DNA of 46,027 nt from Acidimicrobiia bacterium (GCA_041576165.1 JBFGLM010000039.1:1-46027), one strand, 5' to 3'; shown: positions 16,839 through 39,738, counted from the stretch's first letter. Program-made: numbers and translations. Notes: generated by a model from the sequence alone, not told the origin.

Positions 16839-19800
16839 TCACGGCAATGGGGTCTGGACCAGTGCCACTCCACTGGGGTCACAGAGAAAGCCTCGCCCGA
16901 CCGGCAGCGCCGGCGGAAGCGCTCGAGGCAATCGGGCGCCCAAGGGTTCGCCATCGACGGCCTCCTGTGGCTGCAGAATGAGCCCTCGCCGACCGGCCCG
17001 CAAGGCCTTCGTCCAGTGCCGCACTGTTGAGCGGAGGGCATGACTACGGGCGGCCGCGATGACATGGAGGCCCGGGCGGCGGGCGGCCAGCACGCCGGCG
17101 ATGGCGTCGTCCACGTCGTCGACCTCGTCTGCGTCGTCGACCAGCACCATCATGTCGGCCCCGGGGTAGAGCCCGAGGATCTCACCGAGGTCCTGGGCGT
17201 TGTCTAGAAGGTGGTCGACGCCGGGTTCGTCTCGCAGTGGGGACTGACGCGGACAGATCCCGACGATGCGACACGCGGGTGCCAGGTGGCGAGCAGCCGC
17301 AGCCAGCGTCGCGAGGACTGTTGATTTTCCCGATCGCGGCGAGCCGGTCACCAGGGCGTGGTCTCCCGCCTCGAGCTGCAAGAGAGCCGGCCCGAGATCG
17401 TGGTCACTGATGCCGATCGGTAGTGCCCAGGCGGTACCGGCCCGGGCACCTGCGTGCATGAGGTCGGCGAGCTTCACGGTGGGCGGCAGCGTGTCCACGG
17501 ATGGAGCCGACCGGGGCAATGTTCCGACCGGTCCGGCCGGGAGAATCTCCTCGTCGGCATATGCCACGACCTGGACGAACCGGCCGGAGACAACGTCGAT
17601 CGCGCGGTTCGGACCCAGCTCGGGCAGGTCGCGGGCCATCACCCCGAGGGCGCCGTAGTCCATGCGATCCGCCAGCTGGAAGACGAGACGGGCCCGGAAC
17701 ACTCCCAGCATCACTCCCGGTATGGATCTGGCTTGATCAGCCGACATCACCGTGTATACGGCGACCGATGGTCCGTCCGCCACGATCCGCTGCAGCGCCT
17801 CTCTGTACTCGAGGTCGACCATTTCATCGAACGACCCCCGAAACCCACTGAGGTCATCGAGCAGCAAGAAGATGCGGGTCCGGGCAGCGCGACTGGCGCG
17901 TCGGTGGGCGATTTCGGAATCCAACATGCGCAGGAGCCGCTGCTGCCGCTCGTTTTCACGGCCGGCGATCACCGCCCCGGCGTGGGGTAGTCCCGCCACG
18001 CAGGTCAGCCCTCCTACCTTGTAGTCGATGGCATAGATGTGGGAGTCGTCGGGGTGGTGCAGTGCTATCCCGGCGGCGATGGCCCGCATGGCGTCGCTTG
18101 GTCCGGCCGGCCCCACGAGCAGCAAGTTGCCGTCGACCGGCGGGTCCCAGGTGAACAGCCGCCGGCGTTGTAGCTCGGGCTCATCGGCGAGACCGAGCAC
18201 CAGGCCGTCTGGAACCGCCTCGCCGGGCGTCGCCAGGTCGGCCGGGACGAGTCGGGCGGGAAGCGGATCCGGCCACGGCCGGCGGGGCGGATCGAAGCCG
18301 GCCTGGATGTTGGCGGTGACGATCGCCCCGACCAGCAGGTCCAGCTCGCTCGGGCCGGTGGCGGTGGGCGGGGGCGGCGGGGGATCATGCATGCTGAATT
18401 TGAACGGGCTCAGCCGGATCCCGGCACCGGCGTCCCCGCAGTGTGGCAGCGTGGCGATGGCCGACTGGAACGCCACGAGCTCGCCGGGTCCCAGCCGCAG
18501 GTAACCGCGGCCGGGTCGGGTCCGGGGGATACGGGCGGCGGCCGGATCGTCGAGCACATCCTTCGAGTCGGCCGCAGTCTGGACCCGCAACGAAATCCGC
18601 AGATTCGTGTTGGCCCGGATGGAGTCCTTGACCACCCCGGACGGCCGCTGGGTGGCGAGGATCATATGGACACCCAGACTGCGCCCCCGTTGGGCGATAT
18701 CGACCAGTGCGTTCATGAAGTCGGGCAGCTCCGCGGCCAGCGCCGCGAATTCATCGACGATCAACACCATCCGGGGCAGCGGGGCGCAATCCTGCGCCGC
18801 ATAGTCGGTGATGTCGGAGGCGCCGGCGGCCCGAAGCCGCTGCTCGCGGTAACGCAGCTCGGCCTCCAGACAGGTCAACGCCCGTGCCCCAAGCTGTTCG
18901 TCGAGATCGGTGACCAGCCCGACGACATGGGGGAGACGGCTGCAGGCATCAAAGGCCGAGCCGCCTTTGTAGTCGATGAGCACGAAGTTGAGGCGCTGTG
19001 GGTCGTACCCGGCGGCCAGACCCGCCACCAGTGCCCGGAGCAGCTCGCTCTTTCCAGACCCGGTGGTTCCGGCGATGAGGCCGTGCGGACCGTCGCGCAC
19101 CAGGTCGACCCGCAGATCTCCTCCCTGGCCCCGACCGATGGCGGCAGCCAGCTCCATTCGTTCCGCAGTGCTCCACCGACGCGTGATCGCGTCGGGAGAG
19201 AGTGTGCCGAGCCCGATCATGGGCACCAGCGGCGCAGTCTCCGGAAGCGACGCGCTGGGGCTGACCGTCTCCGGATCGTCCAGGCGAGCCAGGCGGCGGG
19301 CAAGATGGCGGGCGGCGCCGGTGGTCGCGGTCCACGGTTGCACGATGGTGGGGTCGCCGCCTTGCCCCGGGTCGGACACTCGGAGGAGCTCGCCGTCGAG
19401 TTCAACCAGCTGGGTGCAGGCCCCGGGCAGGTCGGTTCGCCGGGACCGGATGACCACCGTGGCGACAGGGAGGCCGGCGCCGGCGAGCACCTCGCGCTGG
19501 ACTGTTCGCAGCTCGGGCTCCTCGGACTCCATATCGCTGATCAACAGCGTGAGCGGCACATCTCCGTCGTAGGGACCGCGCAGGAAACCCAGAATCGACG
19601 CCGCCTGGTCACTGTCGGCCGCAAGGAGCCGGACCTCGCCGTCGTTGGCCCGCACGTGGGGCAGCCACTTCGCCCAGTCCCATGCAGCTGGATGGTCGGT
19701 GAGGACCGCCAGACGTAGGTCCGCTGGTCCCTGCTGGGCGGCCGCCGCGCAGATCCAGGAACGCACGAGCCCCAACGCCTGATGGCGAGACACTCCGTAG

Positions 19801-20864
19801 ATCCCGATGACCGTCCCGGGTCGCAGGTCGACCTGCAGCGGCACATTTGCCAGCCTGCCTGCCCGATCCAGGATTGCCTGCACTTCGGCCTCGAGCCCGT
19901 CCTCGGCGATACCTGCCCTCCAGGCGAGGGTGCCGGTGCCGATCGGGACGCGCATGAAATCGGGATGTCCGGGCCGCCGCTCCCAGATGCGCGGACTTCC
20001 CCGATCCACCGCGGAGACGAGTTCTGCTGCGGAAGCCGCCGACAGTCGCCGGCGCTGCGCTTCGCGCACGACCAGCTCCTCCAGCGTCCGTTCGAACCGA
20101 ATGAGGTCTTCTGCGAATTGTTCGTCGTGGCGCCGCCGGTCCCGCCACCGGCGGATCCGGTCATCCACCACGTTGCCCACCATCATCAAAGGGCCCATCA
20201 GCGCGAACGCCAGGAACATCACCCGCCCAAAGATGATCGCCATGCCTACGCCGAATCCGGCCGGCAAGACGAGGGAAATGGGACTCAATCGTCGGGTCCT
20301 GGAGCGTTCGGGAGTGCGAGTTGGTGGAGTCAGCGCGACCGCGGGGGGTTGGTCGAGTACGCGGGGCGGGCGGTTGAAGGTCACCGCCCCGGCGGCTGCC
20401 GGACCGGGCGGCTCCGCCGGGCGGAGCCGGAACCGGGCGTTGCCCACGCGCAGGTCATGGCCCTCGGGCAGCTCGCAACCGTCGATCGTGACCGCCGTGA
20501 GGCCGACTACCAACTCAGACCGCCCGGCGGGGGCGTGCCGCCAGCGGATGGCGGCGGGCGCCGCGCCGATGTCGTAACGGCCGACGGCCAGGCGCCACAC
20601 CTGGCCGGCCGGCGGGCCTTCAATGGCGTGCAATTCGAACACGGGCTCGGACCCGGCGGGGGTTGCCTCATCGAGCCGAAGCTCGGCTCCGTGGTACAGA
20701 ACTTTCGCCGCAGCGTCTTCGAGCTCGATGGATCGTCCGTCTACTGTGAGCGTCGCCGGCGGCTCGAGGCCAAGCGCACCCAGCACGTCGCCGACGGTCG
20801 CATTGCCCGCCAGGTCGAGCGTCAGGTCGGCTTGAATCGATCCGTGGACCACACTGACGTGCAT
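16839..20864 (-). CDS. EssC/EccC-like FtsK/SpoIIIE type VII secretion ATPase
   Basis: Possible ubiquitin-like and FHA-like N-terminus, FNRPPR, TM pair, WERRP, GPHGLIAGTTGSGKSE, IDYKGG, IVDEFA, GRSLGVHMILATQRP; second ATPase degenerate; third Walker A GSPRSGKS. Confidence 0.88.
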   Translation of the reverse strand: MHVSVVHGSIQADLTLDLAGNATVGDVLGALGLEPPATLTVDGRSIELEDAAAKVLYHGAELRLDEATPAGSEPVFELHAIEGPPAGQVWRLAVGRYDIGAAPAAIRWRHAPAGRSELVVGLTAVTIDGCELPEGHDLRVGNARFRLRPAEPPGPAAAGAVTFNRPPRVLDQPPAVALTPPTRTPERSRTRRLSPISLVLPAGFGVGMAIIFGRVMFLAFALMGPLMMVGNVVDDRIRRWRDRRRHDEQFAEDLIRFERTLEELVVREAQRRRLSAASAAELVSAVDRGSPRIWERRPGHPDFMRVPIGTGTLAWRAGIAEDGLEAEVQAILDRAGRLANVPLQVDLRPGTVIGIYGVSRHQALGLVRSWICAAAAQQGPADLRLAVLTDHPAAWDWAKWLPHVRANDGEVRLLAADSDQAASILGFLRGPYDGDVPLTLLISDMESEEPELRTVQREVLAGAGLPVATVVIRSRRTDLPGACTQLVELDGELLRVSDPGQGGDPTIVQPWTATTGAARHLARRLARLDDPETVSPSASLPETAPLVPMIGLGTLSPDAITRRWSTAERMELAAAIGRGQGGDLRVDLVRDGPHGLIAGTTGSGKSELLRALVAGLAAGYDPQRLNFVLIDYKGGSAFDACSRLPHVVGLVTDLDEQLGARALTCLEAELRYREQRLRAAGASDITDYAAQDCAPLPRMVLIVDEFAALAAELPDFMNALVDIAQRGRSLGVHMILATQRPSGVVKDSIRANTNLRISLRVQTAADSKDVLDDPAAARIPRTRPGRGYLRLGPGELVAFQSAIATLPHCGDAGAGIRLSPFKFSMHDPPPPPPTATGPSELDLLVGAIVTANIQAGFDPPRRPWPDPLPARLVPADLATPGEAVPDGLVLGLADEPELQRRRLFTWDPPVDGNLLLVGPAGPSDAMRAIAAGIALHHPDDSHIYAIDYKVGGLTCVAGLPHAGAVIAGRENERQQRLLRMLDSEIAHRRASRAARTRIFLLLDDLSGFRGSFDEMVDLEYREALQRIVADGPSVAVYTVMSADQARSIPGVMLGVFRARLVFQLADRMDYGALGVMARDLPELGPNRAIDVVSGRFVQVVAYADEEILPAGPVGTLPRSAPSVDTLPPTVKLADLMHAGARAGTAWALPIGISDHDLGPALLQLEAGDHALVTGSPRSGKSTVLATLAAAARHLAPACRIVGICPRQSPLRDEPGVDHLLDNAQDLGEILGLYPGADMMVLVDDADEVDDVDDAIAGVLAARRPGLHVIAAARSHALRSTVRHWTKALRAGRRGLILQPQEAVDGEPLGARLPRALPPALPVGRGFLCDPSGVALVQTPLP

Positions 20865-21202
20865 CAGAAAAACACCGGTGGCGGTCCAACCGCCGTGTCA
20901 GGGCTTTCGATCGGAGCGGCGGCGGCTCCCGCAGCGGATGCCGCGGCTGCGGCTGCCGCTTCGATCCGAGCCGCTTCTCGGCGGGCCCAGTCGGCCGCCG
21001 CGCGGAGGGTGCCGGCGCCGCGGCGCGCGCCGGCGGCGGCGGCGTCGTACTCAGTCTGGAGCGGGGCGGTCGCATCGCCGGCGAGCGCCGACGGAAGGTT
21101 GTCTCCGGTCGGCTGCAGCCCCGACGACGCGCACTCGTCCAGGTCCGCGGCGAGCCCGTCGAGGCCGGCCGCCACCGTACGGTAGAACGAAGCCGTGGCC
21201 AT
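20864..21202 (-). CDS. Small Ala-rich helical protein, probable WXG100-like partner or substrate
   Basis: 112 aa, GGAGG RBS, stop overlaps the ATPase ATG (TGATG), central LAG at the WxG-equivalent position. Confidence 0.6.
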   Translation of the reverse strand: MATASFYRTVAAGLDGLAADLDECASSGLQPTGDNLPSALAGDATAPLQTEYDAAAAGARRGAGTLRAAADWARREAARIEAAAAAAASAAGAAAAPIESPDTAVGPPPVFF

Positions 21203-21226
21203 CCGGCGCCCTCCCTGCCTCCACGC

Positions 21227-21511
21227 TCAACCGGCGCTGACGTAATACGTGTTGGCCAGGTAGTTGAGATCCTCGCCGTATTTCACCAGCCCCGCTGAGT
21301 TGGCGGCCATGAACTCAGAGAGGTTGTTGAGGTGGGGCATGGCCTCTTCCACCAGTCCGGCGAACTGATCGGACGCAATCGCCTCCCACGATTCCTGCAG
21401 GGTTGCCACTGCGCCCTGAATGCTGTGCAGCAGCGTGCTCATGTCCCCGCTCCACGCTGCGAAGTTGTTCCCACACTGAATGATGAGATCACCATCGCCC
21501 CGAATCGCCAT
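21227..21511 (-). CDS. WXG100-like protein with a W-E-A variant motif
   Basis: 94 aa, GAAGGAG RBS, central SWEAIASDQF with Trp42; two genes upstream of the FtsK ATPase. Confidence 0.72.
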   Translation of the reverse strand: MAIRGDGDLIIQCGNNFAAWSGDMSTLLHSIQGAVATLQESWEAIASDQFAGLVEEAMPHLNNLSEFMAANSAGLVKYGEDLNYLANTYYVSAG

Positions 21512-21706
21512 GTCGTCTCCTTCCCGTGCCGGTCTCACCGGTCCGTGTCTGGCCTGTGCCGGCTCGCTTGGAGCATATAACGATGTTTAAGAATGTTCAA
21601 GGAAGCAGATTGATAGTCAGTAGCTGATGAGATCACCGCGGGGTGGCGCACCGATCAGCGATGGAATCAGCGGTGGGAGGGCGCCCAGGCGGGCTCGCGC
21701 CTGCCC

Positions 21707-24256: not shown

Positions 24257-25666
24257 CTATCGATTGCCCGCCGGCTCGGAGAAGTGAGGCCGCCACCAAA
24301 AACCGACCACCGCCCCGCCGTCGGGGTGGTTGGCTGCGAAGGGCTCCCCACCGTGGCCCTCGACGATCTGGACGACGATTGCCAGTCCCAAGCCGGAGCC
24401 AGGCAGATTTCTAGCCGAAGTGGCGCGATAGAAACGCTCAAAGACACGGGGAAGGTCCTCTGGGGTGAATCCGGGGCCGTGGTCTCGGACCTCGAGGCGA
24501 TCCCGCCGGACGGTCACCTCGATCGGAGCTCCGTCTGGGCTCCACTTGTCGGCGTTTTCCAGCAGGTTCCAGATGGCCCGATCGAGCTGGCCTCGGCGGC
24601 CCGTCAGGGGCGCAGGCTCCGACTGGACACTGATCTCGCGACCGGTGCGCCGCCGGCTCCGTTCCACAGTCGTGGCGGCGACGTCAGCCAGGTCGAGCGG
24701 GACAGCCGCCTCGTCGGTGTTGCGATCTGTGGCGAGGTCGACCAGCTCCCCGACGAGTGAGCCCAGCTCTTTCAGCTCGGCATCGACATCGTCGAGCAGA
24801 TGTTTGTAATCCTCCGACGCGAGCTCCTCGGAGCGCAGCAAGACCTCGATGTTGGTCCGCAGCGACGTGAGAGGAGTCCGCAGCTCGTGAGACGCGTCCA
24901 TCACCAGCCGATGTTGTTGGTCTTTCGATTCACGCAGCGCGGCCAGCATCGTGTTGAACGACCGGGCCAGGCGCCCCACCTCGTCCTCACGGTCCACTTC
25001 GATGGGAACCTCCAGCTCCCTGGTTTTCGCGACCCGGTCGGCGGCAGCGGACAGTTCTTCGACCGGACGGACCGTCCGCACCGCGATGAACCACCCGGCC
25101 ACCGCCGCCACTGCCGCCAATACGACGCCGAACGAGAGGATGCGAGTCTGCAGCGCCGCCAGCACCGCCGCGTTCTCCGTGACATCGCGAGCAAACACCA
25201 GCGCGCCGCCATTCCTGGCCGGTAGCACCGCCAACCGGTAGGAACGATCGTCAACCCGGATGTCCGAGAAGGTGGGACCATCACCGTCGACCAGATCCTC
25301 CGGTACCTCGAACGCAGGTGAGCCTTCGACCCGGAGCGTCACGTCACCCGCACCATCGACACCTTGGACGATCAGGTCTGGTGAGATCAGCGCCGCTCTG
25401 CCATCTCGCCGCTCAAACGGACCAAACTCGCCGTCTCGGTTGCGGATTCGGGGGAAGCGGATGACCTCGGGTTGGGCCGCGCTGCCGGCGCCCACCAACA
25501 GGTCGACCGCACGGGGTGGCAGCTCGCGCATCCGTTCCCGCAGAAACGCATCTGCTTCGGCGTCGAGGGCCCGACCCGTGCTGAAGAGCGCCCCAGCACC
25601 AGCCACGGCCGAGACGGCGATGGTGCTGGCGGCCAGGATCAACGCGAAACGCCAGCGGAGACTCAT
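24257..25666 (-). CDS. mprB: HAMP sensor histidine kinase, MprB-like
   Basis: H-box DASHELRTPLTSLRTN, NLLENADKWSP, DHGPG, GSGLGL; ATG at 25666 overlaps the RR stop. Confidence 0.88.
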   Translation of the reverse strand: MSLRWRFALILAASTIAVSAVAGAGALFSTGRALDAEADAFLRERMRELPPRAVDLLVGAGSAAQPEVIRFPRIRNRDGEFGPFERRDGRAALISPDLIVQGVDGAGDVTLRVEGSPAFEVPEDLVDGDGPTFSDIRVDDRSYRLAVLPARNGGALVFARDVTENAAVLAALQTRILSFGVVLAAVAAVAGWFIAVRTVRPVEELSAAADRVAKTRELEVPIEVDREDEVGRLARSFNTMLAALRESKDQQHRLVMDASHELRTPLTSLRTNIEVLLRSEELASEDYKHLLDDVDAELKELGSLVGELVDLATDRNTDEAAVPLDLADVAATTVERSRRRTGREISVQSEPAPLTGRRGQLDRAIWNLLENADKWSPDGAPIEVTVRRDRLEVRDHGPGFTPEDLPRVFERFYRATSARNLPGSGLGLAIVVQIVEGHGGEPFAANHPDGGAVVGFWWRPHFSEPAGNR

Positions 25667-26355
25667 TGCTCTCGGAGCACGTAGCCGACCCCCCGGACCG
25701 TATGGATGAGGCGGGGTCGGTCGCCTTCCTCGCTCTTGCGCCGGAGATAGCCGATGTAGACGTCGAGTGAGTTCGAGCTCGTCGCGAAGTCGATTCCCCA
25801 AATCCGCTCATAGATCACGTCGCGTTCGAGCACGATCTCGGCGTTGGCCATCAGCAGCTCGAGCAGGTCGAACTCGGTCTTCGTCAGGTCGATCCGGAGT
25901 GCACCCCGGCGTACCCGCCGGCTCGGGAGGTCGAGCTCGAGATCGGCATACGTGAGCACGTCGGCGTCGGTGAGCTCGAGGCTCCGGCGCAGCAATGCGC
26001 GGATGCGGGCCAGTAGTTCGTCAAGCGAGAACGGTTTGACCAGGTAATCATCGGCCCCGGCGTCAAGCCCGGCGACGCGGTCAGCGACCTCGTGCTTGGC
26101 CGTGAGCATCAGGACGGGTGTGCGATCTCCGCGAGCCCGCATCCTGCGGCAGACCGTCAGGCCGTCGACGTAGGGCATCATCACGTCGAGGACGACCAGA
26201 TCGTGGCCTCGCTGATCCAGCGCCTGCAAGGCGGCAGCGCCGTCGCCCGCGATCGCTACGTCATAGCCTTCGAGCCGCAGCGCCCGGCGCAAGGAATCGC
26301 GGACCGCTCGATCATCTTCGGCGACCAGAAGCTGGGCACTGTGCGCGGTGTTCAT
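25663..26355 (-). CDS. mprA: OmpR-family response regulator, MprA-like
   Basis: AEDDRAVRDSLRRAL, LDVMMP, SNSLDVYIGYLRRK, LIHTVRGVGY. Confidence 0.9.
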   Translation of the reverse strand: MNTAHSAQLLVAEDDRAVRDSLRRALRLEGYDVAIAGDGAAALQALDQRGHDLVVLDVMMPYVDGLTVCRRMRARGDRTPVLMLTAKHEVADRVAGLDAGADDYLVKPFSLDELLARIRALLRRSLELTDADVLTYADLELDLPSRRVRRGALRIDLTKTEFDLLELLMANAEIVLERDVIYERIWGIDFATSSNSLDVYIGYLRRKSEEGDRPRLIHTVRGVGYVLREQ

Positions 26356-26378
26356 GGTCTCCAGGCTACGGCGCGACG

Positions 26379-26395
26379 CTAAGAACTATCTGAGA
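26379..26395 (-). promoter_or_regulatory. MprA-box-type direct repeat (autoregulatory)
   Basis: Minus strand TCTCAG-ATAGT-TCTTAG, ending 23 nt upstream of the RR ATG. Confidence 0.75.
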
Positions 26396-26429
26396 ACGGG
26401 CGCGGCACGCGGCTGCAATCCGCCGTCCA

Positions 26430-27431
26430 TCAGCCCGCAACCGAGATCGTGACCTCGGCGCTGTAACGGTCCTCCCCGTTCCACACCCAGGTGGCCTCGA
26501 TGACGTGCGAGCCCGGGTCGAGCTGGTCGAGAACGATTCCTTCGAGGCGGACCATCGTCCCGAACAAGTTGGTGATCGGCAGCTTGACCAGGTCGCCGGC
26601 CGCAGTTCCGTCGACCGTAACAACCACAGTGGTGTCTTCGGCCCGGAATGCTGCCTCATCGCCGCTGTCGTACGGGAGGTTGTAGAACCAGCCTTCCAGT
26701 AGGTAATAGGCATCGCCCCGGCCGATGCTGGCCGTCGCGGTACAGGCCGGGGTGGACCCGGTGCAGGTGCCGCTCAACCCGACGAGGTGGATCTGAGGGG
26801 GCAACACCACGGGCTCCAGACCGAGTCCCCGCGCCAGGAAGCTGGCCATTTGGGCGCGGATGACCTCGGCCTCAGGACAGAACAGGGTGCCGTCTGCGTT
26901 GCAACCAAGCGTGATCCCGGCCGCCGCGATGGCGTTGATGTTGGGCGCGTGCGTGCCGCGCACATCGGTGAAGGGACCGGTCGTGAGGGGAGTCAGGTCC
27001 AGGCCTCGGGCCAGGAACGACGCCATTTGCTCGCGGGTGACAAAGTCATTCGGACAGAAGACACCGGGTCCACAACCGAGAGTGATACCGGCAGCCGCGA
27101 TTGCACCGATGTTGGAGGCGTGGACGTTGCTCGCAGTGACGTCGCTGAAGGAAGGAGCGCTCGGCACCAGGTCCAGGGCGCGGGCGAGGAAGCTGGCCAT
27201 CTGCGCCCGCGTCACCGGCAGATCCGGACAGTAGGCAGTGCCCTCGGGTACGCAGCCACCCGTGATGCCGGCCCGGGCGATCGCCTCGATGTTCGGCTCG
27301 TGTGTCGTTGCGTTCTCGTCGAAGAACGTGCCGCCCGGTCGGTCGACCTGCGCGATGCCCCGATCCGGCAGGAGGACCGCGCCGGCCCCAACTACAGCCA
27401 CCGCAGCCAGCACGACTGCAAACCGGCGCAT
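26430..27431 (-). CDS. Secreted protein with three Cys-containing SLH-like repeats and a C-terminal beta domain
   Basis: Signal peptide MRRFAVVLAAV...; three copies of I.A.A.AGIT.GC...(Y/F)CP...V(T/I)R.QMASFLAR. Confidence 0.85.
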   Translation of the reverse strand: MRRFAVVLAAVAVVGAGAVLLPDRGIAQVDRPGGTFFDENATTHEPNIEAIARAGITGGCVPEGTAYCPDLPVTRAQMASFLARALDLVPSAPSFSDVTASNVHASNIGAIAAAGITLGCGPGVFCPNDFVTREQMASFLARGLDLTPLTTGPFTDVRGTHAPNINAIAAAGITLGCNADGTLFCPEAEVIRAQMASFLARGLGLEPVVLPPQIHLVGLSGTCTGSTPACTATASIGRGDAYYLLEGWFYNLPYDSGDEAAFRAEDTTVVVTVDGTAAGDLVKLPITNLFGTMVRLEGIVLDQLDPGSHVIEATWVWNGEDRYSAEVTISVAG

Positions 27432-27898
27432 CACACGTCCTCGATGTCGATTGACGCCAGCAGCTCGTTGGCGCTGGCCACCAGGGCTTCCCGATCGGTG
27501 TCGGCGACCACGACATACAGGCACCACGCCCGCCCGGACGCCTGGAAGAATCGCTGGACCCCAACCAGGCCCGTCAATGGACGCTGCATTGAGTTCGGAT
27601 CGAAATCCTCTGCGGCAAGTGGAAGAGGCAGACCGACGGTCTCAAACAACGCCTGTCCTACGTCGCGGCGGTTGTACTCGAAGAGCACGATGAGGATGTC
27701 GCCGGCGCGCATTATCTCAACGCCGCCGCTCCCGAAATCGCCCCGCTCCGCGGGAAGCGCAAAGTTGGCAGCGTGCAGAACTGCGTTGGTTTGCTCGCCT
27801 GTGCCGTCGGCGGCCAGCGCCGACGTGTTGGCGAACCTTCGGTAGATCTCTGCATCCCATCCGTCGGGTAGGTCGATGGTGATCCCGCCCCCTTGCAT
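27431..27898 (-). CDS. Hypothetical protein in the mau-like operon
   Basis: MQGGGITIDLPDGW...LHAANFALP...GDFGSG; TGATG overlaps at both ends. Confidence 0.75.
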   Translation of the reverse strand: MQGGGITIDLPDGWDAEIYRRFANTSALAADGTGEQTNAVLHAANFALPAERGDFGSGGVEIMRAGDILIVLFEYNRRDVGQALFETVGLPLPLAAEDFDPNSMQRPLTGLVGVQRFFQASGRAWCLYVVVADTDREALVASANELLASIDIEDV

Positions 27899-28572
27899 CA
27901 CGGCCACGCGAGAACTCCGGCCGCTACGAGCATCACCACCAGCTGAGCCGCAACCGCGGATCGGTGGGCGAGGGCGGCCCGGTACTGCATGCGGCGGTGC
28001 AGCTCGCGCAATGCTTCCGGGGTGGTGACGGACGCCACGGACCATAGGACGAGCGCACGGCCCGCACCGAAGACGGCGCCCAGGGATCCACCCATGACCC
28101 AGCTTCCCGACAGCAATGCCAGGGCGAACGTGGCGTAGACCGAGGCGGATGTGACGATCGTCAGAATCCCGGCCCCGAGCTGAAAGCCGTAGCCGGCGCC
28201 ATACACCCATCCCCGGTAGGTCGTGAGCCAATCCTCATTCACCTGGCGTTTGGGGGTCGGCAGCCGGACGACACCAAGGTCGAACAGGACTCCGGCCGCC
28301 ACCACAACGGCGGCGACGGCCGCAGTCCCCGCCGAGCTCATTTCCGACAACAACATGGCGCCGAGCGCGCCGAACAAGCTCCCGGTCAGGACGCCGCCTG
28401 TGATCGAGCCGATGAGGTAGGCAACTGCCGTGACTCCGAAATTCATGTTGCGTGACCGCTCGCCGAGCGGGTGGATGCTGGCCAGCATCGACTCTCCTCA
28501 GGGAGACCAGCTCGATCGAATCGCCCCAGTCATTGCCAGGACGATGGCAGCGCCGAACAGCGCCCCGGGCAT
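27898..28572 (-). CDS. MauF/DsbD-like membrane protein, predicted selenoprotein (UGA at 28500-28498 = Sec25)
   Basis: ATG 28572 overlaps the upstream stop; reads MPGALFGAAIVLAMTGAIRSSWSP-UGA-GESMLASIHPLG in frame into the 27898..28488 ORF; hairpin follows. Confidence 0.75.
28474..28489 (-). promoter_or_regulatory. Candidate bacterial SECIS hairpin
   Basis: GAUGCU-GGCC-AGCAUC starting 8 nt after the UGA; second hairpin CCGCUC-GGC-GAGCGG at 28470-28456. Confidence 0.6.
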
Positions 28573-29315
28573 CAGGTGTCGTCTCTTTCTTCGACGGTGT
28601 TCGGGTCGGGATACAGACTGGGGTCGCCCGGGTGGATTCCGGCGGCCGCCAGCTCGTCGTCGGCTCGCTGCTCCCGTTCCCGTCCCGTGCTGCCGTGCCG
28701 GCGCGGGTTGGTGGTCAGGCCGGCGTCGGCCACCGCCTGTTTGAGGAGCGACGCAACCTGACGCCAGGACCCGGCGGCACCTTCGCCGAGGGTGGTGCCG
28801 CTGGGGCCGTCGACGAGGATGAAATACGGCGACACCGGCACCTCGTAATCCTCCCAAGCTTGAGTGGTGGCGACCGTCGGCACGTGGGATGGAGCGAGTT
28901 CGCGCAACAGCGATTCGCTCTCCTGATCCAGCCCTTTGGTGACGATCACCAGCCGGGTTTGGTCTCCGGGGAGCTCGAGGTCGCGATCGGCGAAGGCCTC
29001 CCAGAAACCGCGACAGGTCGTACAGCCCGTCGTGAGAAAGGCCAGCAGCGTGGTGTGATCTGTGTTGACCACACCGACCTTCATCGCAGTCCCGGTCGGG
29101 GTGCTTCCCATCACGTCCCGAGCAGGGGTGGCATTGGGACGCGGCGCGGCGACGCCATCGCGCGTCTTGAGTTCGATGCGGGACGTCTGGCGGTTCTCTC
29201 CGTAGCCCATGTCGTGCAGGGTGCGCAGAATCTCGGCGTGGCTGCGCAGCAGCCCGGCGACGAGCAGACCGAGAACCGCCACGGCAAATATCACCACTAC
29301 GAGCAGGGTGGTCAT
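28572..29315 (-). CDS. MauD/TlpA-like membrane-anchored thioredoxin-fold protein
   Basis: N-terminal TM, FLTTGCTTCRGFW CxxC, cis-Pro VPVSPYFILVD; ATGA coupling. Confidence 0.85.
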   Translation of the reverse strand: MTTLLVVVIFAVAVLGLLVAGLLRSHAEILRTLHDMGYGENRQTSRIELKTRDGVAAPRPNATPARDVMGSTPTGTAMKVGVVNTDHTTLLAFLTTGCTTCRGFWEAFADRDLELPGDQTRLVIVTKGLDQESESLLRELAPSHVPTVATTQAWEDYEVPVSPYFILVDGPSGTTLGEGAAGSWRQVASLLKQAVADAGLTTNPRRHGSTGREREQRADDELAAAGIHPGDPSLYPDPNTVEERDDT

Positions 29316-30637
29316 GGCTGTCCCCACACTACTGGCACGTCGCCCGCGCGCCCGAAATGGAAATTGATGTGCGAGTTGCCAGCACTGTTGGAGTTGCGCA
29401 GCAGCCATTGGTTTCCTCGCACAACGCCGATCGTGTCTACTCCGTCTCCGTTCCAGTCACCAACGACCGGAATGTCATCGGGCTCGCCGTACCACACCGC
29501 AATATCGACCGGACCGGCGGCATTGGCAGTCCGCAACTGGAACTGCGAACCCCGCCGGACCCCGATCGTCGAAGGGCCGGTGCCGTTCCAATCCCCCGCC
29601 ACCGGGACGTCCCCCGCCTGACCAAAAACAAACTCGGAATCAGGACCGCCGGGGATGAGATCATTCCTCAACTGCCACCGCCCGTCTTTGAACGCTCCGA
29701 GGCCGCTGATCCCGTCCCCATTCCAGTCGCCCACGACGGGGATGGCACCGGCGTCGCCGAACTCGAGGACGATGTCGGGTGGACCCGGCTCCAGACTGTT
29801 GCGCAACAGCCAGGTGAGCTGGCCACCGAACGGGCCGTACTTGGTGCCGCGCACGACGCCGGGTGTCTTCGTCCCGTCTCCGTTCCAATCGCCCATCACG
29901 AAAACGTCGTCCGGCTTGCCGTATTCGAAGTTCAGTGTGGCGCCCTCACCGAGCGACTCGCTGAGGTACCAGGTCGTATCCCGCACCATCCCTGCCAGGG
30001 TCGAGGAGTTCGGGCTGGTGTGGAGGCAGGGTCGGTTGTGGAACCGGGTCCCATTGTCGGTGGCGCTGGCGGTTGTGCAGGTCGGGTCGAACTGCCACGG
30101 CGGGACGCAGGTGACGACGCGGCACAAGATCGGTCCGACGCAGCGCACGTTCTGATTGCATTGCCCGTAGCGGAAGCTCGTGCAGCAGGCTTTCCGGTTA
30201 CTGCAGCTCCCGTTGGCGCACCCGCACCCGCAGTCGGCACAGGTCCTCGAGCACAATCCGTTGGAGCCACATCCACATCCGTTGCAGTCGGCATTGCAGT
30301 CGAGGTAGTACCGGGGCATAGAGACGCCCCCCACGTCGCAGAAGCCCGATCCGTCGGCTTTCCACCAGCCGGCGGCGACGGTCCCCGGAGGACAGGTGTT
30401 GCTCCCGGTCAGGGTGCAGCAGAACTCCGTGTAGCCGTCACAGCAGAGATCGGTGCAGTTGCAGGTTGAGCCGTTGCACGAGCAGATGGCCGCATATGCC
30501 GACCCGGGCCGCAGGATGTACCGGAGCGGCGCCACCGTGAGCGCGGCGCCCACCAGGGCGGCTCTGGTGAGAAACCCCCTTCGGCTCGTTGTGCTGTCGA
30601 GCACCGCAGTGCTGCGCTCCATGAGCCAACTGCTCAT
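29312..30637 (-). CDS. Tat-exported Cys-rich MauA-like domain fused to GDWNGDG (FG-GAP-like) repeats
   Basis: SRRGFL Tat motif, AYA cleavage site, 28 Cys in about 155 aa including GSNTCPPGT...W...YYLDC, then four (V/A/M)GDWNG(D/T)G repeats. Confidence 0.85.
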   Translation of the reverse strand: MSSWLMERSTAVLDSTTSRRGFLTRAALVGAALTVAPLRYILRPGSAYAAICSCNGSTCNCTDLCCDGYTEFCCTLTGSNTCPPGTVAAGWWKADGSGFCDVGGVSMPRYYLDCNADCNGCGCGSNGLCSRTCADCGCGCANGSCSNRKACCTSFRYGQCNQNVRCVGPILCRVVTCVPPWQFDPTCTTASATDNGTRFHNRPCLHTSPNSSTLAGMVRDTTWYLSESLGEGATLNFEYGKPDDVFVMGDWNGDGTKTPGVVRGTKYGPFGGQLTWLLRNSLEPGPPDIVLEFGDAGAIPVVGDWNGDGISGLGAFKDGRWQLRNDLIPGGPDSEFVFGQAGDVPVAGDWNGTGPSTIGVRRGSQFQLRTANAAGPVDIAVWYGEPDDIPVVGDWNGDGVDTIGVVRGNQWLLRNSNSAGNSHINFHFGRAGDVPVVWGQP

Positions 30638-31197
30638 TCAGCCACCCTGGTCGTCTGCATGCTCCCCAGTGACCCCTGCCGGCCTGCAACGATACTCGCG
30701 CTCCGGGCCAGAAGTGTCAGCGCCACGTAGAGCAGGTAGGCGGCCACCAGCGTGGCCGCTACAAACGGGAGCCCGGCCCAGGGCTGATCCGCCAGGATTC
30801 GGCTGACCGGTCCGATCTGGGCCACCGCCACCCACCCGCTGGTGATCGCCCCCACCAGCGTGATCCCGATGTGCGTTCGGGAGGGTGGAGTGTCGGCCTT
30901 TCCGAAGCACCCACACGACGCCACCGGAAGGTCACGAACCAGTGCCAACCCAGCGAAACCGGCGAAGGTGACGTAGGCGGCCGCCAGCAGCCCGGCGAAA
31001 AGTGGGCGCCCGGTCCAGATGGCGCCCGCGGCGATCAGCACCTCAACGCCTCCCAAGCCGCGTACCAGGGCGAAGGAGCGGGGCAGGCCGGCTGCGGCGA
31101 GAGCGCCCGAGGTCCCACGCGGATCATGGAGCTTGAGGGCTCCGGCCACGCCCAGCAGAAGCGCGAAGGCGTAGAAGGGCCCGGCGAGCGGCGTCAT
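30634..31197 (-). CDS. MauE/DoxX-family membrane protein
   Basis: GVAGALKL, G.VEVL, ASCGCFG motif, about 5 TMs. Confidence 0.88.
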   Translation of the reverse strand: MTPLAGPFYAFALLLGVAGALKLHDPRGTSGALAAAGLPRSFALVRGLGGVEVLIAAGAIWTGRPLFAGLLAAAYVTFAGFAGLALVRDLPVASCGCFGKADTPPSRTHIGITLVGAITSGWVAVAQIGPVSRILADQPWAGLPFVAATLVAAYLLYVALTLLARSASIVAGRQGSLGSMQTTRVAE

Positions 31198-31402
31198 GGT
31201 CGTCGAGGCTAGTTAGTCGCGTGCGGCTTGCCGCAGTCCTTTCTCACGACGCTGCGTCGGTGAGGACTAGTCCCGGCGAGCGGGTCCTAGATGCCCTCCG
31301 CACTTCGTCAAGAACGCCAAATGTGGCGTCGATACCACTTTTAGTGAGAGAGTGAACCGGTCGGGGATGCCCGGGTACTCGAAGACGAGCAGGAGGCTTC
31401 GA

Positions 31403-32029
31403 ATGACCTTGCGCACCCGCGCCGTGGCGGTTCGTGGAACCGTCGTGCTGTTGGCAGTGGTGCTGGCAGCCTTTTCTGTAATGACCGCATCTCGTGCGGC
31501 GTTCACCGACACCACCGACAACACCGGCAACGACTTCGCCGCCGGCACGGTGATCCTGGTCGACGACGACACCGGCAGCGTGCTCTTCAACGTTCCCAAC
31601 CTCAAGCCCGGTCAGTCGGTGGAGAACTGCGTTGAGGTCACGTATCAGGGCAGCGTCGATGCCAACGTGCGCCTGTACGGTGCCAACCTGGCTACCACGA
31701 CTGCCACCAACCTCGCTCCCCAGTTGAACCTCACAATCGAAGAGGGCACCGGGGGCGGCTTCGTGGCGACCGAGCTCGGCGGCGGTGAGGGAGACTGCAC
31801 GGGCTTCGTAGCCGGCTCCACCTTGACCACTGCGGTCACGGACACCATCGACGAGTTCGCGACGGTGGCCACCAACTTCGGTTCGGGCCTGTCGACGTGG
31901 GCGCCGCTGGGAGGTTCCAACGACGCCCGCACCTACCGATTTGTGGTCGAGTTGGACGCCGCGACGACCGATGCATTCCAAGGAATGGATGCACAGATCG
32001 ACTTCGTCTGGGAAGCCCAGAACACCTGA
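31403..32029 (+). CDS. TasA/camelysin-like SipW-dependent secreted protein
   Basis: AGGAGG RBS; SRA-AFTDTTDNTGNDFAAGTV; LFNVPNLKPGQS; C-terminal aromatic strand FVWEAQN. Confidence 0.8.
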   Translation: MTLRTRAVAVRGTVVLLAVVLAAFSVMTASRAAFTDTTDNTGNDFAAGTVILVDDDTGSVLFNVPNLKPGQSVENCVEVTYQGSVDANVRLYGANLATTTATNLAPQLNLTIEEGTGGGFVATELGGGEGDCTGFVAGSTLTTAVTDTIDEFATVATNFGSGLSTWAPLGGSNDARTYRFVVELDAATTDAFQGMDAQIDFVWEAQNT

Positions 32030-32042
32030 TTCAAGGAGCTCC

Positions 32043-32066
32043 GGTGGGAGGCGTCGGCCTCCCACC
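32043..32066 (+). terminator. Intercistronic 10-bp hairpin after the TasA-like gene
   Basis: GGTGGGAGGC-GTCG-GCCTCCCACC. Confidence 0.6.
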
Positions 32067-32076
32067 TAACCCGACC

Positions 32077-33012
32077 ATGGGACTCAGAACCGCCGTTACA
32101 GACCCGGACCTCGTCCGGTCGACCCCGCCACCGGGGGATCCGGCGCAGCTGCCGGAGCGGTATCCGCTGCCCGGGCCTCCGGCGATCAAGCCGTCCCCGA
32201 GCCCGCCCCGGTCTCGAGTGCTGATCGATCTGCGGCCCGACCGGGCGCCGGAACCGGAGCCTCTCCGGTGCCCGCTCGAGGCCGGCACGACCTCAGCAGG
32301 TCACGCCGGGGACGGCAGGACCGAAATCATCGAGCAGGCCGGCGGATTCCCATACGCTGCTTCGCGACCTGCAGCCCTGAGCCTGGCGACGGCCGCTGGG
32401 CCTGAGCGCTCCGAACTCCTCAATGACGATCAGCTCCAGGCGTCCCTCGGCGAGCCCGGCGGTGCGCTCGACGGCGAGGTTGACACCGCACGATCCACCA
32501 GGACGTGGCCCGAAGTGCGCTTCTACCTCGGCGCATTCAGCCTCTTCTTCGTCTCCTACGTTCTCGTCACGGCGCTGCTGGTAGCAGGCGCAACGGTGGT
32601 GCTGGGGCTGCGCCCCGTTGCAGTGACGTCGGGATCGATGGAACCGGTGATTCGGGCCGGCGATGTCGTCATGTTCGCCGGTCCACCCGCGGAGCTCCTC
32701 GGTCCCGGCACCGTCGTCGGTTTCGACGAGCCGGGCACAAACCGCCCGGTGACCCATCGGGTCGTTCGGGCCAATCCGGACGGCACATATGTAACCCAGG
32801 GTGACGCCAATCCCAAGCCCGATCCCCAACAGCTGGACATGGACCGCGTGTGGGGAGTGGGACGGTTGCTCATCCCTTACGCCGGATATCCGGCGACGTG
32901 GCTGGCGGTGGGTGCTGGTTGGAAAGTCGCGGCCCTGGTGGTGTTCCTGCTCGGTTGCGGGATCTCGTGCCGCTGGGCAGTTCTCGACGAATACAACCCC
33001 TGGCTGGCGTAA
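32077..33012 (+). CDS. sipW: Signal peptidase I, SipW/ER type (S26B)
   Basis: VTSGSMEP.I..GD, VTHRVV (Ser/His dyad), TQGDAN; start uncertain because of a long Pro-rich N-terminal extension. Confidence 0.88.
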   Translation: MGLRTAVTDPDLVRSTPPPGDPAQLPERYPLPGPPAIKPSPSPPRSRVLIDLRPDRAPEPEPLRCPLEAGTTSAGHAGDGRTEIIEQAGGFPYAASRPAALSLATAAGPERSELLNDDQLQASLGEPGGALDGEVDTARSTRTWPEVRFYLGAFSLFFVSYVLVTALLVAGATVVLGLRPVAVTSGSMEPVIRAGDVVMFAGPPAELLGPGTVVGFDEPGTNRPVTHRVVRANPDGTYVTQGDANPKPDPQQLDMDRVWGVGRLLIPYAGYPATWLAVGAGWKVAALVVFLLGCGISCRWAVLDEYNPWLA

Positions 33013-34319
33013 TGATGCGGCGGCTGGCGACAGGATCGATGCTCGTCATCGTTGCCCTGGCCGCTCTGCTGCCGGCGGTCGGGGCGGTTTTCGTAGGCGC
33101 AACCTCGAACCAGTCGAATTCGTTCACGGCATCGAACACCTTCTCATCTTTGCGAGTGGTCACCTACCAAGTCGGGAGCGGAGCTTTCGCCGGCGCCACC
33201 TATACGTTGACGCTCGATCAGGCGCTGCTGCCGAACTACTTCGTGATGATGAGGGGCGCAGCGGGTGACGGGACTGCCGGCAGCGGGCGCGGTCCCGACG
33301 CCAACTACGCACGGGTCTCGGGTGATCCATTCGGGAACTTCGGGGTCGTCACGGCGGCCAACCAGCTCCGGCTGGAGCGGCGTGGTACGACCGGTGATTG
33401 GCAGGGCCAGGTCGTCGTCGTGGAGTCTGTGCGGAACGACCTGACGTCTGGCTTCCGCCTCCTGGATGTGGTCGAGCGCAACATGGGCCCGGGTGTGACC
33501 ACCGCTGCGTCTACCGCGACTGTGCCGTGGACCTCGATCGGTCAGGTCGGGCTCTACGGCGGAACGTATGGCGGCGGGCTCGACGCCACCGCCACTGCCC
33601 TCGCGGATCACCAGGTCGGCTGGGCCCGCATCCATCCAACAGGGCCCAACGTCGTGAACTATGTGCGGGAGGCGGGGCTGGGGGGCTCCCTATCCGGCAC
33701 GAGCCGATTCACGACGTATGTGGTGGAGTGGGGCGCAGAGTGGATCATCCAGCGCGCCACCGTCGCGGGCGCCAACGGCGGTAACGGCGTGAATGCACCC
33801 GGTGAGTACGACACGGCCCCGATCGCCCCGGTGCCGCGGGACCAGACATTCGTAGCGGCGTACGGGCATACCACCTCCAACCGACTGTCGGCAGGATGGG
33901 CCGGTCAGGTATTCACCCTCGGCGATGGGGTTGCGCAGAACGCCGTAGAGACCAGGGTGGCAGTGGGAGCCGAAACGGCCGGCTCGCGGACTGTCGAAGT
34001 GTATGTCCACACCCACCCGAGACTGGCGGTGGATCACCGGTTCGGACGCGACGGCAGCATCGCCACGATGGCGCTGACCGGCTCGGTCGCCGTCGACGGC
34101 ACGATTGACACCGAAACATACGTCGGCGGCGCCGTGGCCCGCACAGGGGAAAGCCGTCTGGCCATCATCTCCAACAGCAGCAACGGCAGCGGCATCCAGT
34201 TCCCCCGTCCCCAGGTGTGGTCGCGGCCGACCGGTCCTGGCACCGTTACCTGGAGCCGGTCGCGGAGCGGCCAACCGGGAGCTTTCTGGCTCCAATCGGT
34301 TGATTTCGCCAACGTGTGA
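33012..34319 (+). CDS. Large SipW-class secreted protein (possible minor or adhesin subunit)
   Basis: ATG overlaps the sipW TAA; GA-VFVGATSNQSNSFTA leader motif; Gly/Thr-rich beta body. Confidence 0.75.
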   Translation: MMRRLATGSMLVIVALAALLPAVGAVFVGATSNQSNSFTASNTFSSLRVVTYQVGSGAFAGATYTLTLDQALLPNYFVMMRGAAGDGTAGSGRGPDANYARVSGDPFGNFGVVTAANQLRLERRGTTGDWQGQVVVVESVRNDLTSGFRLLDVVERNMGPGVTTAASTATVPWTSIGQVGLYGGTYGGGLDATATALADHQVGWARIHPTGPNVVNYVREAGLGGSLSGTSRFTTYVVEWGAEWIIQRATVAGANGGNGVNAPGEYDTAPIAPVPRDQTFVAAYGHTTSNRLSAGWAGQVFTLGDGVAQNAVETRVAVGAETAGSRTVEVYVHTHPRLAVDHRFGRDGSIATMALTGSVAVDGTIDTETYVGGAVARTGESRLAIISNSSNGSGIQFPRPQVWSRPTGPGTVTWSRSRSGQPGAFWLQSVDFANV

Positions 34320-38304: not shown

Positions 38305-39738
38305 GTGCGTGTTCCGCCGGTCCGGCTGCGGGGATGGGGAATCCGTGGAGGGGAACTCCTTGCGGTGATTCTCGTGCTCGCGCTCGCGCTGCCGGCGGTC
38401 GCGGCCCAGATCTTCGTCGAACACTTCGACACAGATCCCTTTCCGCCCGTGCCCGAGCCCCCGCCGGTGCCCGAGCCGCCCCCCGGAGAGGAACCGCCCC
38501 CCGATCCGCCTCCACCGGAGCCGTTGTGGGATCCGAACTGGATCGACGTGCGCACGGGCGACATCGACAACACCGCCGTGACCAGCCCCGGTTACATCGG
38601 CGACGCGGTAGCTATCGAGATCCCCGCCGGCACCAACCGCGGAGTGGGAGCCCGCTATTACTACCCGGGCGACGACGACCCGGATGAGGCGTGGTTCCGC
38701 TACATGTTGCGGTTCGACGATTGGGCCGCCACGACGGACGGCAAGCTGCCCGGGTTTGCCGGTATCTACGGCTCGACGGCCCGGGGTTGTCTCCCCTCCA
38801 CCGAAGCTTCTCCCGGCTGGTCGGCCCGGGTCGTGTTCAAAGCGGACGGGACGGCCGGGGCGGGACCGGGCGAGACCCGGCTGGGCTATTACGTGTACCA
38901 CCTCGATCAGCCGACGGCATGCGGGCAGACGATGCTGTGGGACCCCGGCGTCGTACGCGACAATCGCTGGTATTGCGTCGAGGGCCATGCGCGGTTGAAT
39001 TCCCTCGGTCAGAACGATGGCATGCTGACGGCGTGGCTTGACGGAGAAGAGGCCCTGCGTTGGGAGGGCCTGGCGTTCCGGCGCGATACCGAAGACTTCA
39101 TCCACATACGGGAGTTCTGGCTCAACGTCTTTTTCGGCGGCACTGCAGCGACGCCGGTGGATCTGGATCTGTCGCTCGACGAGCTGGTGGTGAGCGACAG
39201 CGGCCGGGTGGGGTGCCCCGATCCCTTCTCGGATGACAACGGTTCGGTGCATGAGCCGGCGCTCAGCGAACTGAAGGCGCGGGGCATCTACAACGGGTGC
39301 GCCTCCCAGGTTTCGTGCCTGGAAGATGAGCTGAGTCGCTGGGCGATGGCGGTGCTCCTGGACCGGACCCTTGGCCTGGCGCCTACGTCGGAGAACTTCT
39401 TCACCGACGACGATCAACACTGGGCGCGCAGCCACATAGACCGGCTGGCCGCAGCCGGGATCACCAGGGGTTGCGAGGTGGGCTTGTTCTGTCCGGACGA
39501 TTCGATCACTCGGGCAGAGTTCGCCGTCATGCTGCGCCGGGCGTTCGGGTTCCCGGCCTCGTCCACCGACTATTTCACCGACGACGACGGGCACTGGGCC
39601 GAGGACGACTTCAACAGCCTGGCCGAGGCGGGTGTCACGCTCGGGTGCACCACCACGACGTATTGCCCCAATGCCGGATTGATCCGGGGCCAGGCGGCCA
39701 GCTTGCTGCTCAGGGCCCTCGACTGGATACCGGCCTGA
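38305..39738 (+). CDS. Secreted polysaccharide lyase 14-like domain with C-terminal SLH-like repeats
   Basis: Signal peptide, PEPPP linker, GKLPG, WSARV, YVYH, NDG.L..WLDG, FFGG; repeats such as AAAGITRGC...FCPD...TRAEFA; start 38305 or 38365. Confidence 0.75.
   Translation: MRVPPVRLRGWGIRGGELLAVILVLALALPAVAAQIFVEHFDTDPFPPVPEPPPVPEPPPGEEPPPDPPPPEPLWDPNWIDVRTGDIDNTAVTSPGYIGDAVAIEIPAGTNRGVGARYYYPGDDDPDEAWFRYMLRFDDWAATTDGKLPGFAGIYGSTARGCLPSTEASPGWSARVVFKADGTAGAGPGETRLGYYVYHLDQPTACGQTMLWDPGVVRDNRWYCVEGHARLNSLGQNDGMLTAWLDGEEALRWEGLAFRRDTEDFIHIREFWLNVFFGGTAATPVDLDLSLDELVVSDSGRVGCPDPFSDDNGSVHEPALSELKARGIYNGCASQVSCLEDELSRWAMAVLLDRTLGLAPTSENFFTDDDQHWARSHIDRLAAAGITRGCEVGLFCPDDSITRAEFAVMLRRAFGFPASSTDYFTDDDGHWAEDDFNSLAEAGVTLGCTTTTYCPNAGLIRGQAASLLLRALDWIPA

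Follow-up and report, generated by a model that had tools for sequence, protein, structure and literature searches.

A Tat-exported, cysteine-rich protein of Acidimicrobiia with probable MauA ancestry and a candidate selenoprotein MauF in its operon

A contig of an Acidimicrobiia bacterium (GCA_041576165.1 JBFGLM010000039.1:1-46027; this whole stretch of 46,027 nucleotides is called the window below) encodes an exported, cysteine-rich protein with motifs recalling the MADH light chain, MauA. So far as we are aware, this light-chain fold has been described only in the TTQ subunit of amine dehydrogenases. Does this protein descend from such a subunit, and if so, could it still carry a tryptophan-derived quinone? 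A sequence-only reading of the locus had described a MauA-like domain apparently lacking the TTQ tryptophan and fused to a GDWNGDG repeat module. We analyzed the gene, its relatives and its neighborhood.

Core protein and family

The gene (29312-30637, minus strand) encodes 441 residues, with a GC3 of 0.81 and codon usage of the kind expected for a genuine gene; an ORF on the plus strand (29357-30469) was rejected as the shadow of this overlapping gene. Inspection of the ORF and the Tat model TIGR01409 confirmed the inventory of the sequence-only reading, namely a Tat leader, an even number of 28 Cys with CC pairs and a CGCGC run, and four repeats plus a partial one. TIGR01409 matches residues 17-45 above the NCBIfam cut-off, and A47 is invariant in 234/234 relatives; we infer cleavage at AYA. 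The leader is similar to that of MauA (hhalign E 6e-4). All 28 Cys fall within residues 52-204, including three CC pairs and a single CGCGC run (136-140), and the same segment holds a WW pair (91-92) and a PPW motif (179-181). Neither the core nor the whole protein matched any Pfam model, or any NCBIfam model beyond TIGR01409, and searches of PDB sequences and of plasmids returned no match.

Searches for relatives yielded 712 and 1,941 clusters (90% identity, over the range of lengths searched), and the family has 474 representatives at 50% identity. GTDB gave at least 567 matches, the best 80 of which were taken; almost all of them carry Acidimicrobiia or Actinomycetota in their titles. Actinospongicola halichondriae is a carrier available in culture. 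Alignment and residue counts below cover 367 relatives among the matches listed. No description of the core family was found in the literature, within which subscription papers were thinly covered (PMC5962788, available text). The family as a whole favors even Cys counts (331/359 near-full cores), and Cys appear and vanish pairwise across it, as at 136-151 (phi 0.99), 138-152 and 54-66. These even counts and pairwise gains and losses thus point to core Cys that are paired as disulfides.

Besides Cys, G90, W91 and W92 are each found in 367/367 relatives, R109, D113 and the F155-R156-Y157-G158 stretch each in 366/367, and R173 in 365/367, followed by W181 (301/367) and D67 (290/367); H200 is swapped for Q or M. 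Co-variation analysis of the core, with an effective number of about 170 sequences, coupled A94 to Y111, D95 to P108 and Y111 to V175. The last coupling (z 8.7) fixes the strand register, in which W92 would share a sheet face with Y111 and D113, and R173 would sit opposite D113 as its cross-strand neighbor. Further couplings link Y69 to D194, both R148 and D67 to H200, and K93 to W181. Given such couplings between the C-terminal extension and the core, the extension would pack on the core; the K93-W181 pair would map W91 and W181 to the sheet face opposite W92.

Table 1. Features of the locus, in the order of transcription.
Feature	Coordinates	Strand	Basis
mauE-like gene, DsbB-like membrane disulfide generator, CGCFG motif	30634..31197	-	Pfam MauE E 7.5e-13
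Tat leader of core protein, residues 1-49	30491..30637	-	TIGR01409; invariant A47
Cys-rich core of probable MauA fold (28 Cys), residues 50-205	30023..30490	-	AF2 model; fold matches AADH/MADH light chains
W92, predicted MADH Trp57 counterpart	30362..30364	-	367/367; hhalign pairing with Trp57; co-variation register
D113, predicted MADH Asp76 counterpart	30299..30301	-	366/367; predicted neighbor of R173
R165, MADH Trp108 position in best alignment	30143..30145	-	gapless FRYG..C166 versus MauA YRP..WCFG
C-terminal module of five ~45-aa repeats, residues 213-441	29315..30001	-	two repeat phases; VCBS/FG-GAP-like
mauD-like gene, membrane-anchored thioredoxin (CxxC)	28572..29315	-	BLASTP to P. 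denitrificans MauD E 4e-5
mauF-like gene, DsbD/CcdA-type membrane protein, 224 aa with TGA as Sec	27898..28572	-	read-through ORF
In-frame TGA at Cys of MauF WSPCG motif, predicted selenocysteine	28498..28500	-	aligns with P. denitrificans MauF Cys
Two hairpins after TGA, second fitting bacterial SECIS model	28455..28489	-	co-variation
orfX, conserved 155-aa protein, Mog1p/PsbP-like fold	27431..27898	-	AF2 pLDDT 93.5

Operon

The core gene is the second of a five-gene operon, mauE-core-mauD-mauF-orfX, in which neighboring genes overlap stop-to-start (Table 1). The sequence-only reading had noted neither this operon, which is conserved, nor the predicted Sec codon of mauF. We compared 81 loci, the window and 80 others, with flanks of at most 8 kb, many of them ended by contig edges. 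A mauE homolog is present in 70/81 loci, with the CxC motif in 69/69; mauE is fused to the core in 5/120 matches listed, and a CxCFG motif lies upstream in 7/11 loci that have no mauE match. Homologs of mauD (76/81; CxxC in 75/75), mauF (59/81) and orfX (71/81) are similarly frequent. OrfX resembles Tsi3 (Z 6.3) and PsbP (Z 5.8) in fold, where Z about 6 is a common level, with a best Foldseek E of 8e-3; it has no evident signal peptide and no convincing Pfam or PDB sequence match. In the 80 loci and the window, MauG, MauB, amicyanin and MauJ gave 0 matches in the same search that found MauF 58, MauD 54 and MauE 17 times. No other gene family recurs above 17 loci, no flavoprotein or electron acceptor recurs in the 80 loci, and ORFs with a CxxCH motif are present in 7 loci without any of them recurring, the five tested having no Pfam match. 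An Rfam search of the window gave no match.

According to the available text of bioRxiv 10.64898/2026.03.05.709764, MauE resembles DsbB, being a generalist oxidase that has a CXC site, and MauA occurs in only ~10% of MauE-bearing species; Streptomyces mauE/D clusters, as described in the accessible part of PMC7794033, accompany Cys-rich precursors. In both systems, as here, MauE (CGCFG) and MauD (CxxC) accompany a secreted, Cys-rich substrate away from any methylamine cluster. What sets the present operon apart is its substrate, an anchored domain of probable MauA fold, and the conserved presence of MauF and OrfX; the available texts of the two sources mention neither MauF, nor the core family, nor selenium.

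Relationship to MauA

The confident AF2 model of the core (pLDDT 92.6) was compared with 48,161 chains. AADH and MADH light chains, on which the sequence-only reading had suggested superposing the core, took the top two ranks (AADH, Z 2.8, rmsd 3.6, 73 aligned; MADH, Z 2.5, rmsd 4.4, 77 aligned), at weak scores (overall Z 2.5-3.0, rmsd 3.1-5.2, 65-81 aligned), chromodomains reaching Z 2.3 in the same search. In Foldseek the top four rows are AADH, yet with E 1.1 (all E >1). Profile comparison with 120 MauA sequences gave a local score of 24.5, above 100/100 column shuffles (mean 13.7, max 22.2), and the aligned motifs are collinear between the core and MauA. The hhalign probability of core against MauA is only 9-14%; neither the global hhalign alignment nor pairwise BLASTP (E 0.06) is significant, PF02975 matches 0/76 family members at E up to 10, and a PDB sequence search found no match of the core to the solved MADH/AADH light chains. 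The Atlas ties the family to actinobacterial clusters (207-216 aa) with PF02975 on 13-14% of their members, at a feature score of 0.79-0.80, which is a lead only, and a TM of 0.48. These signals, each of them individually weak, are concordant with each other and with the mauE/D/F neighbors, and we therefore consider it very probable that the core descends from a MauA-type (MADH/AADH) small subunit.

With MauA (PF02975), the family of its best though weak fold matches, the core shares the Tat leader, the CPPG and YR motifs, counterparts of Trp57, Asp76 and Cys46/77/121, and adjacent mauE, mauD and mauF. It differs in the absence of Trp108, the change of Thr122 to Arg, 22-30 Cys instead of MauA's 12, a C-terminal extension and fused envelope modules, and it has no PF02975 match and no mauB, mauG, mauJ or amicyanin gene nearby. 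Having neither Trp108 nor MauG/MauB nearby, the protein is not a MauA member in the defining sense; it is most likely descended from MauA.

Quinone-site residues

In MADH, Trp57 is the quinone-bearing residue of TTQ; Asp32, Asp76, Thr122 and Pro100 also have roles at the site, and Pro100 adjoins Trp108. We took P. denitrificans MauA, from the mau cluster of NC_008688, as the reference, in mature numbering. Its Trp57 lies 11 residues after Cys46 of the CPPGT motif, the Trps upstream being 13 and 26; Asp76 stands just before a CC pair and Trp108 just before Cys109. The TTQ cross-link joins Trp57 and Trp108 (PMC11951088, available text).

The hhalign alignment pairs W92 with Trp57, C100 with Cys61, F155-R156 with Tyr98-Arg99 and C166 with Cys109, the later part being of low confidence. 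The sequence-only reading correctly noted that the mature chain has no Trp upstream of NTCPPGT; the quinone Trp of MauA, however, lies downstream of that motif. By alignment and strand register, W92 is the Trp57 counterpart, so the WW pair holds the Trp57 position rather than replacing it, contrary to the suggestion that it stands in for the quinone Trp. The residue missing by alignment is instead Trp108, the cross-link partner. Column 165, its position in the best alignment, holds A in 141, P in 65, R in 49 and S in 29 relatives, also G, and never W; a Trp anywhere in residues 153-172 occurs in only 5/365 members, whereas MauA has Trp108 in 120/120. An earlier register based on Cys spacing, which placed Trp108 at Q159, was dropped for the gapless alignment; neither column contains Trp. 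By alignment, only one of the two TTQ tryptophans is conserved across the family.

At the Thr122 position, which is T or S in 119/120 MauA, the family has the near-invariant R173. By profile the Asp32 counterpart would be D67; the structural alignment begins with Y69 at that position, against AADH residue 84. The Asn104 position is N or H and the Tyr119 position I or V in relatives, and Y157 aligns with Pro100. With Trp108 left without a counterpart, and with genes for MauG, MauB and amicyanin lacking from the flanks (at most 8 kb) of all 80 loci, the core very probably makes no canonical TTQ. The earlier description as a MauA-like domain lacking the TTQ tryptophan therefore stands as to kinship and as to the unlikely cofactor, and fails as to which Trp was lost. 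The site of the core is somewhat more probably non-quinone than quinone, although the strict conservation of W92 and D113 is the pattern expected of a Trp-quinone site and counts against this reading.

MauF

The mauF start at 28572 overlaps the mauD stop, and the frame runs through a TGA. Among the 60 loci with the WSPCG motif, the Cys codon is TGA in 48 and TGC/TGT in 12, and never another stop or TGG; because a single split on the tree separates TGA-type from Cys-type genes, these 48 TGAs are not independent. The codon after TGA always encodes Gly, with all four third bases used, and a downstream Ser is AGC in 47/47 TGA-type genes. Only with read-through does the protein pass the cut-off of the DsbD_2 profile (26.4 versus 23.8 bits), and in a search of 72,556 plasmids all matches of the read-through protein (6/6) are annotated MauF.

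The two hairpins downstream of TGA are paired in 98.7% of cells, with 32 compensatory cells, and 0/500 shuffles scored as high, in a test that relatedness inflates and for a structure drawn from the same sequences; in Cys-type genes pairing is 60%. The bSECIS model given in the available part of PMC13188914 (apical-loop G, 16-37 nt from UGA) is matched by hairpin 2 in 46/47 TGA-type versus 2/12 Cys-type genes. A double hairpin is atypical for bSECIS, and a wider stretch of the window has an alternative minimum-energy fold. A ribosome-binding-like GAGG 7 nt before an in-frame ATG would permit a stop-and-restart reading, which is disfavored because hairpin 1 buries this ATG in 47/47 and mauD ends in an overlap with the upstream ATG. 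Genome-wide recoding of TGA was rejected, since 41/44 TGA-type mauF genes also end in TGA. No tRNA-Sec was found in the window or in the 60 of 80 loci scanned, as expected with short flanks; Sec machinery is present in another Acidimicrobiia order (bioRxiv 10.64898/2026.04.03.716425, available text). Overall, it is highly probable that MauF here contains selenocysteine.

Bacterial thiol-oxidoreductase selenoproteins (119 families in the 2026 table of PMC13188914, available text) have, as predicted here for MauF, Sec at a conserved redox Cys, Cys-type homologs and a downstream SECIS. That table contains no MauF or DsbD_2 family, its only DsbD-named entry being the rhodanese/DsbD fusion TsoB, and a term search of the main texts of deep-Sep and BSepDB did not return MauF. 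A literature search that covered few subscription papers found no description of a Sec-containing MauF.

C-terminal tail

GDWNG repeats start at residues 249, 303, 348 and 393, followed by the terminal partial unit. A Dx[DN]xDG loop, the calcium-binding loop of VCBS-type propellers (PMC8023676, available text), is present in 3/4 full repeats, the third having T for the second D. FG-GAP_3 matches the tail here at E 0.043, and of 20 aligned tails it weakly matches 12 (E ≤0.1, the best being 1e-5). Among these 20 tails, repeats occur in two circularly permuted phases, and since both total five units, the tail probably forms a velcro-closed, five-bladed VCBS/FG-GAP-like propeller. VCBS/FG-GAP and tachylectin-like propellers share with it a DxDxDG-type loop, a ~45-aa repeat and an occurrence in secreted actinobacterial proteins with extra catalytic domains (same source); the tail differs in its five units and circular permutation and has no solved relative by sequence.

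In the family, 71/367 relatives carry these repeats, 276 have another tail and 20 almost none, some of these sequences being partial. Pfam scans of 96 relatives gave LGFP in 25, SLH in 4, FG-GAP_3 in 4, CWB2 in 3 and DUF4214 in 3. The same repeats occur on 12 other ORFs within the loci, of which four were tested and proved to be one amidase, two SpoIID proteins and one VanW protein. The tail is thus in all likelihood a swappable envelope anchor module. The sequence-only reading had pictured a Ca-binding propeller that replaces MauB or acts as an adhesin: a propeller is plausible and envelope attachment fits, while the MauB substitute is not supported, given that 296/367 relatives do without this tail and that the repeats also sit on amidase, SpoIID and VanW proteins.

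Discussion

Taken together, the protein is best explained as a Tat-exported, envelope-displayed, disulfide-knotted descendant of the MADH/AADH small subunit without TTQ, with a non-quinone site and a folding pathway of MauE, MauD and Sec-MauF; we give this reading a probability of roughly 0.5. In this putative model, the precursor would be exported by Tat, perhaps held beforehand by cytoplasmic OrfX as a chaperone, a guess from its fold. Afterwards, MauE would oxidize the 22-28 core Cys to disulfides via MauD, and MauF with its selenocysteine would supply reducing equivalents, so that wrong Cys pairs may be isomerized. The repeat propeller would anchor the protein to the envelope, as on cell-wall enzymes. 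The old active-site face with W92 and D113 would be kept and rebuilt with R173, R109, Y157 and a cluster of Y69, D194, R148 and H200, and this Arg-rich site is predicted most likely to bind or act on an anionic envelope ligand.

An unlikely but substantial alternative is that the core is a new quinoprotein, in which W92 is oxygenated like Trp57 with the help of D113 and either stays uncross-linked or is joined to Y157 or a Cys, giving an amine oxidase or dehydrogenase that works at the surface without MauB and whose pocket is closed by the C-terminal extension (178-205). The near-complete conservation of W92, D113 and Y157, the N or H at the Asn104 position, the placement of W92 and D113 on one predicted sheet face, and the alignment of Y157 with Pro100, the neighbor of Trp108, all fit this idea. 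So does the one 7-OH-Trp that preMADH bears before MauG acts (PMC11951088, available text). Yet no MauG, flavoprotein or electron acceptor recurs across the 80 loci, and every TTQ/CTQ route described in that source uses such an enzyme. R173, at the Thr122 position, would be able to form a salt bridge with the Asp76 counterpart; either D67 or Y69 may stand at the Asp32 position; and the Tyr119 position is I or V. In its full form, a MauG/MauB-independent surface quinoprotein with Trp92 uncross-linked or tied to Tyr157, swappable anchors, a Sec-MauF disulfide pathway and an as yet undescribed putative cofactor, the proposal is slightly more doubtful still.

It is improbable that the likeness to MauA is convergent, an unrelated disulfide-rich surface domain having recruited the generalist mauE/D/F genes. 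Such an origin would agree with the missing sequence match to MauA structures or PF02975, with Z values of at most 3.0, and with the scarcity of MauA among MauE-bearing species (bioRxiv 10.64898/2026.03.05.709764, available text). Against it, the fold search, profile alignment, leader likeness and bridging Atlas clusters all name the MauA family, the aligned motifs are collinear, and the plasmid matches of MauF are solely annotated MauF.

That the core binds metal, as the sequence-only reading had offered, with the Cys as ligands and the protein a secreted metal sponge or metal-cluster protein, is a distant prospect. It would account for the CC and CxC motifs, for the density of Cys (28 within 153 residues) and for the exchange of H200 for Q or M, as at copper sites, and Tat export is typical of cofactor proteins. 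In contrast, disulfide-forming genes almost always adjoin the core gene, and the MADH light chain is itself disulfide-bonded (bioRxiv 10.64898/2026.03.05.709764, available text). The even, pairwise co-varying Cys, the disulfide-pathway neighbors and also Tat export disfavor metal binding through Cys.

A last alternative is a MADH made of one chain, its fused propeller taking the place of MauB, itself a propeller, and its TTQ being made with another conserved Trp (W91 or W181). It is very improbable and largely refuted: the repeat tail is confined to 71/367 relatives, and the others end in modules that are not propellers or have hardly any tail; amidase, SpoIID and VanW proteins bear these repeats too; and W91 and W181 would lie on the opposite sheet face.

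Under the preferred reading of a TTQ-free descendant of the MADH/AADH small subunit, a fold of the MADH light-chain type would here stand alone as a domain at the surface, across a large family left unannotated by Pfam and NCBIfam searches. We know of no test of the role of MauF. A predicted Sec at its only conserved Cys would mark this residue as redox-catalytic, which offers a concrete hypothesis of that role. MauF would also be a candidate selenoprotein family, in which an ORF caller that stops at TGA starts mauF 28 codons late. As the core family keeps the predicted quinone Trp and the adjoining Asp, without the partner Trp or MauG, it may provide a natural test of MauG-independent first hydroxylation of Trp57 and of other cross-links.

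The core, a Cys-rich MauA-fold domain, and its C-terminal tail of GDWNG repeats also occur in other arrangements among the relatives. In the locus L065, the repeat module forms an ORF of its own (8509–9150) directly after the core, representing either a split gene or a frameshift. At the opposite end, MauE is joined ahead of the core's Tat leader in the relative proteins P0156, P0175, P0182, P0202, and P0229, by either a real fusion or a read-through gene call. Moreover, a convergent gene with GDWNG repeats of the core-tail type lies directly downstream of orfX in the loci L022, L037, L045, L046, L053, L055, L056, and L063; both of the genes tested among these convergent repeat genes are SpoIID-like.

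Under ORF calling that stops at TGA, the start of mauF is placed at 28488, leading to the loss of the catalytic motif. In several loci with a Cys-type mauF, which carries a Cys codon at the WSPCG motif, orfX precedes mauF instead of following it. The SLH-domain, response regulator, and histidine kinase genes at the orfX end are seldom kept next to the operon in the relatives' loci.

Genes of the operon and other gene sets in the window
Feature	Position	Strand	Remark
FtsK/EccC-like ATPase adjoining weak WXG100 match	16839–21538	−	type VII secretion-like set
SLH-domain protein, then response regulator and histidine kinase	24257–27431	−	SLH gene overlaps orfX stop
orfX	27431–27898	−	PsbP-like and conserved; signal peptide not evident
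mauF	27898–28572	−	TGA in frame at conserved Cys; SECIS-type hairpins
TasA/camelysin-like gene, SipW-type signal peptidase, and secreted protein	31352–34319	+	divergent from operon
Fusion of a polysaccharide lyase 14 domain with SLH	38305–39738	+	catalytic domain and anchor in one protein

Elsewhere in the window, the TasA/camelysin-like and SipW-type set is possibly a matrix-fibre cluster, and the polysaccharide lyase 14–SLH protein provides a further example of a catalytic domain combined with an anchor.

The Atlas clusters of 207 and 216 aa linked to the core family consist of stand-alone actinobacterial proteins, 13%–14% of whose members carry PF02975, the Pfam family of MADH/AADH light chains. 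These clusters are likely intermediates between MauA and the core family.
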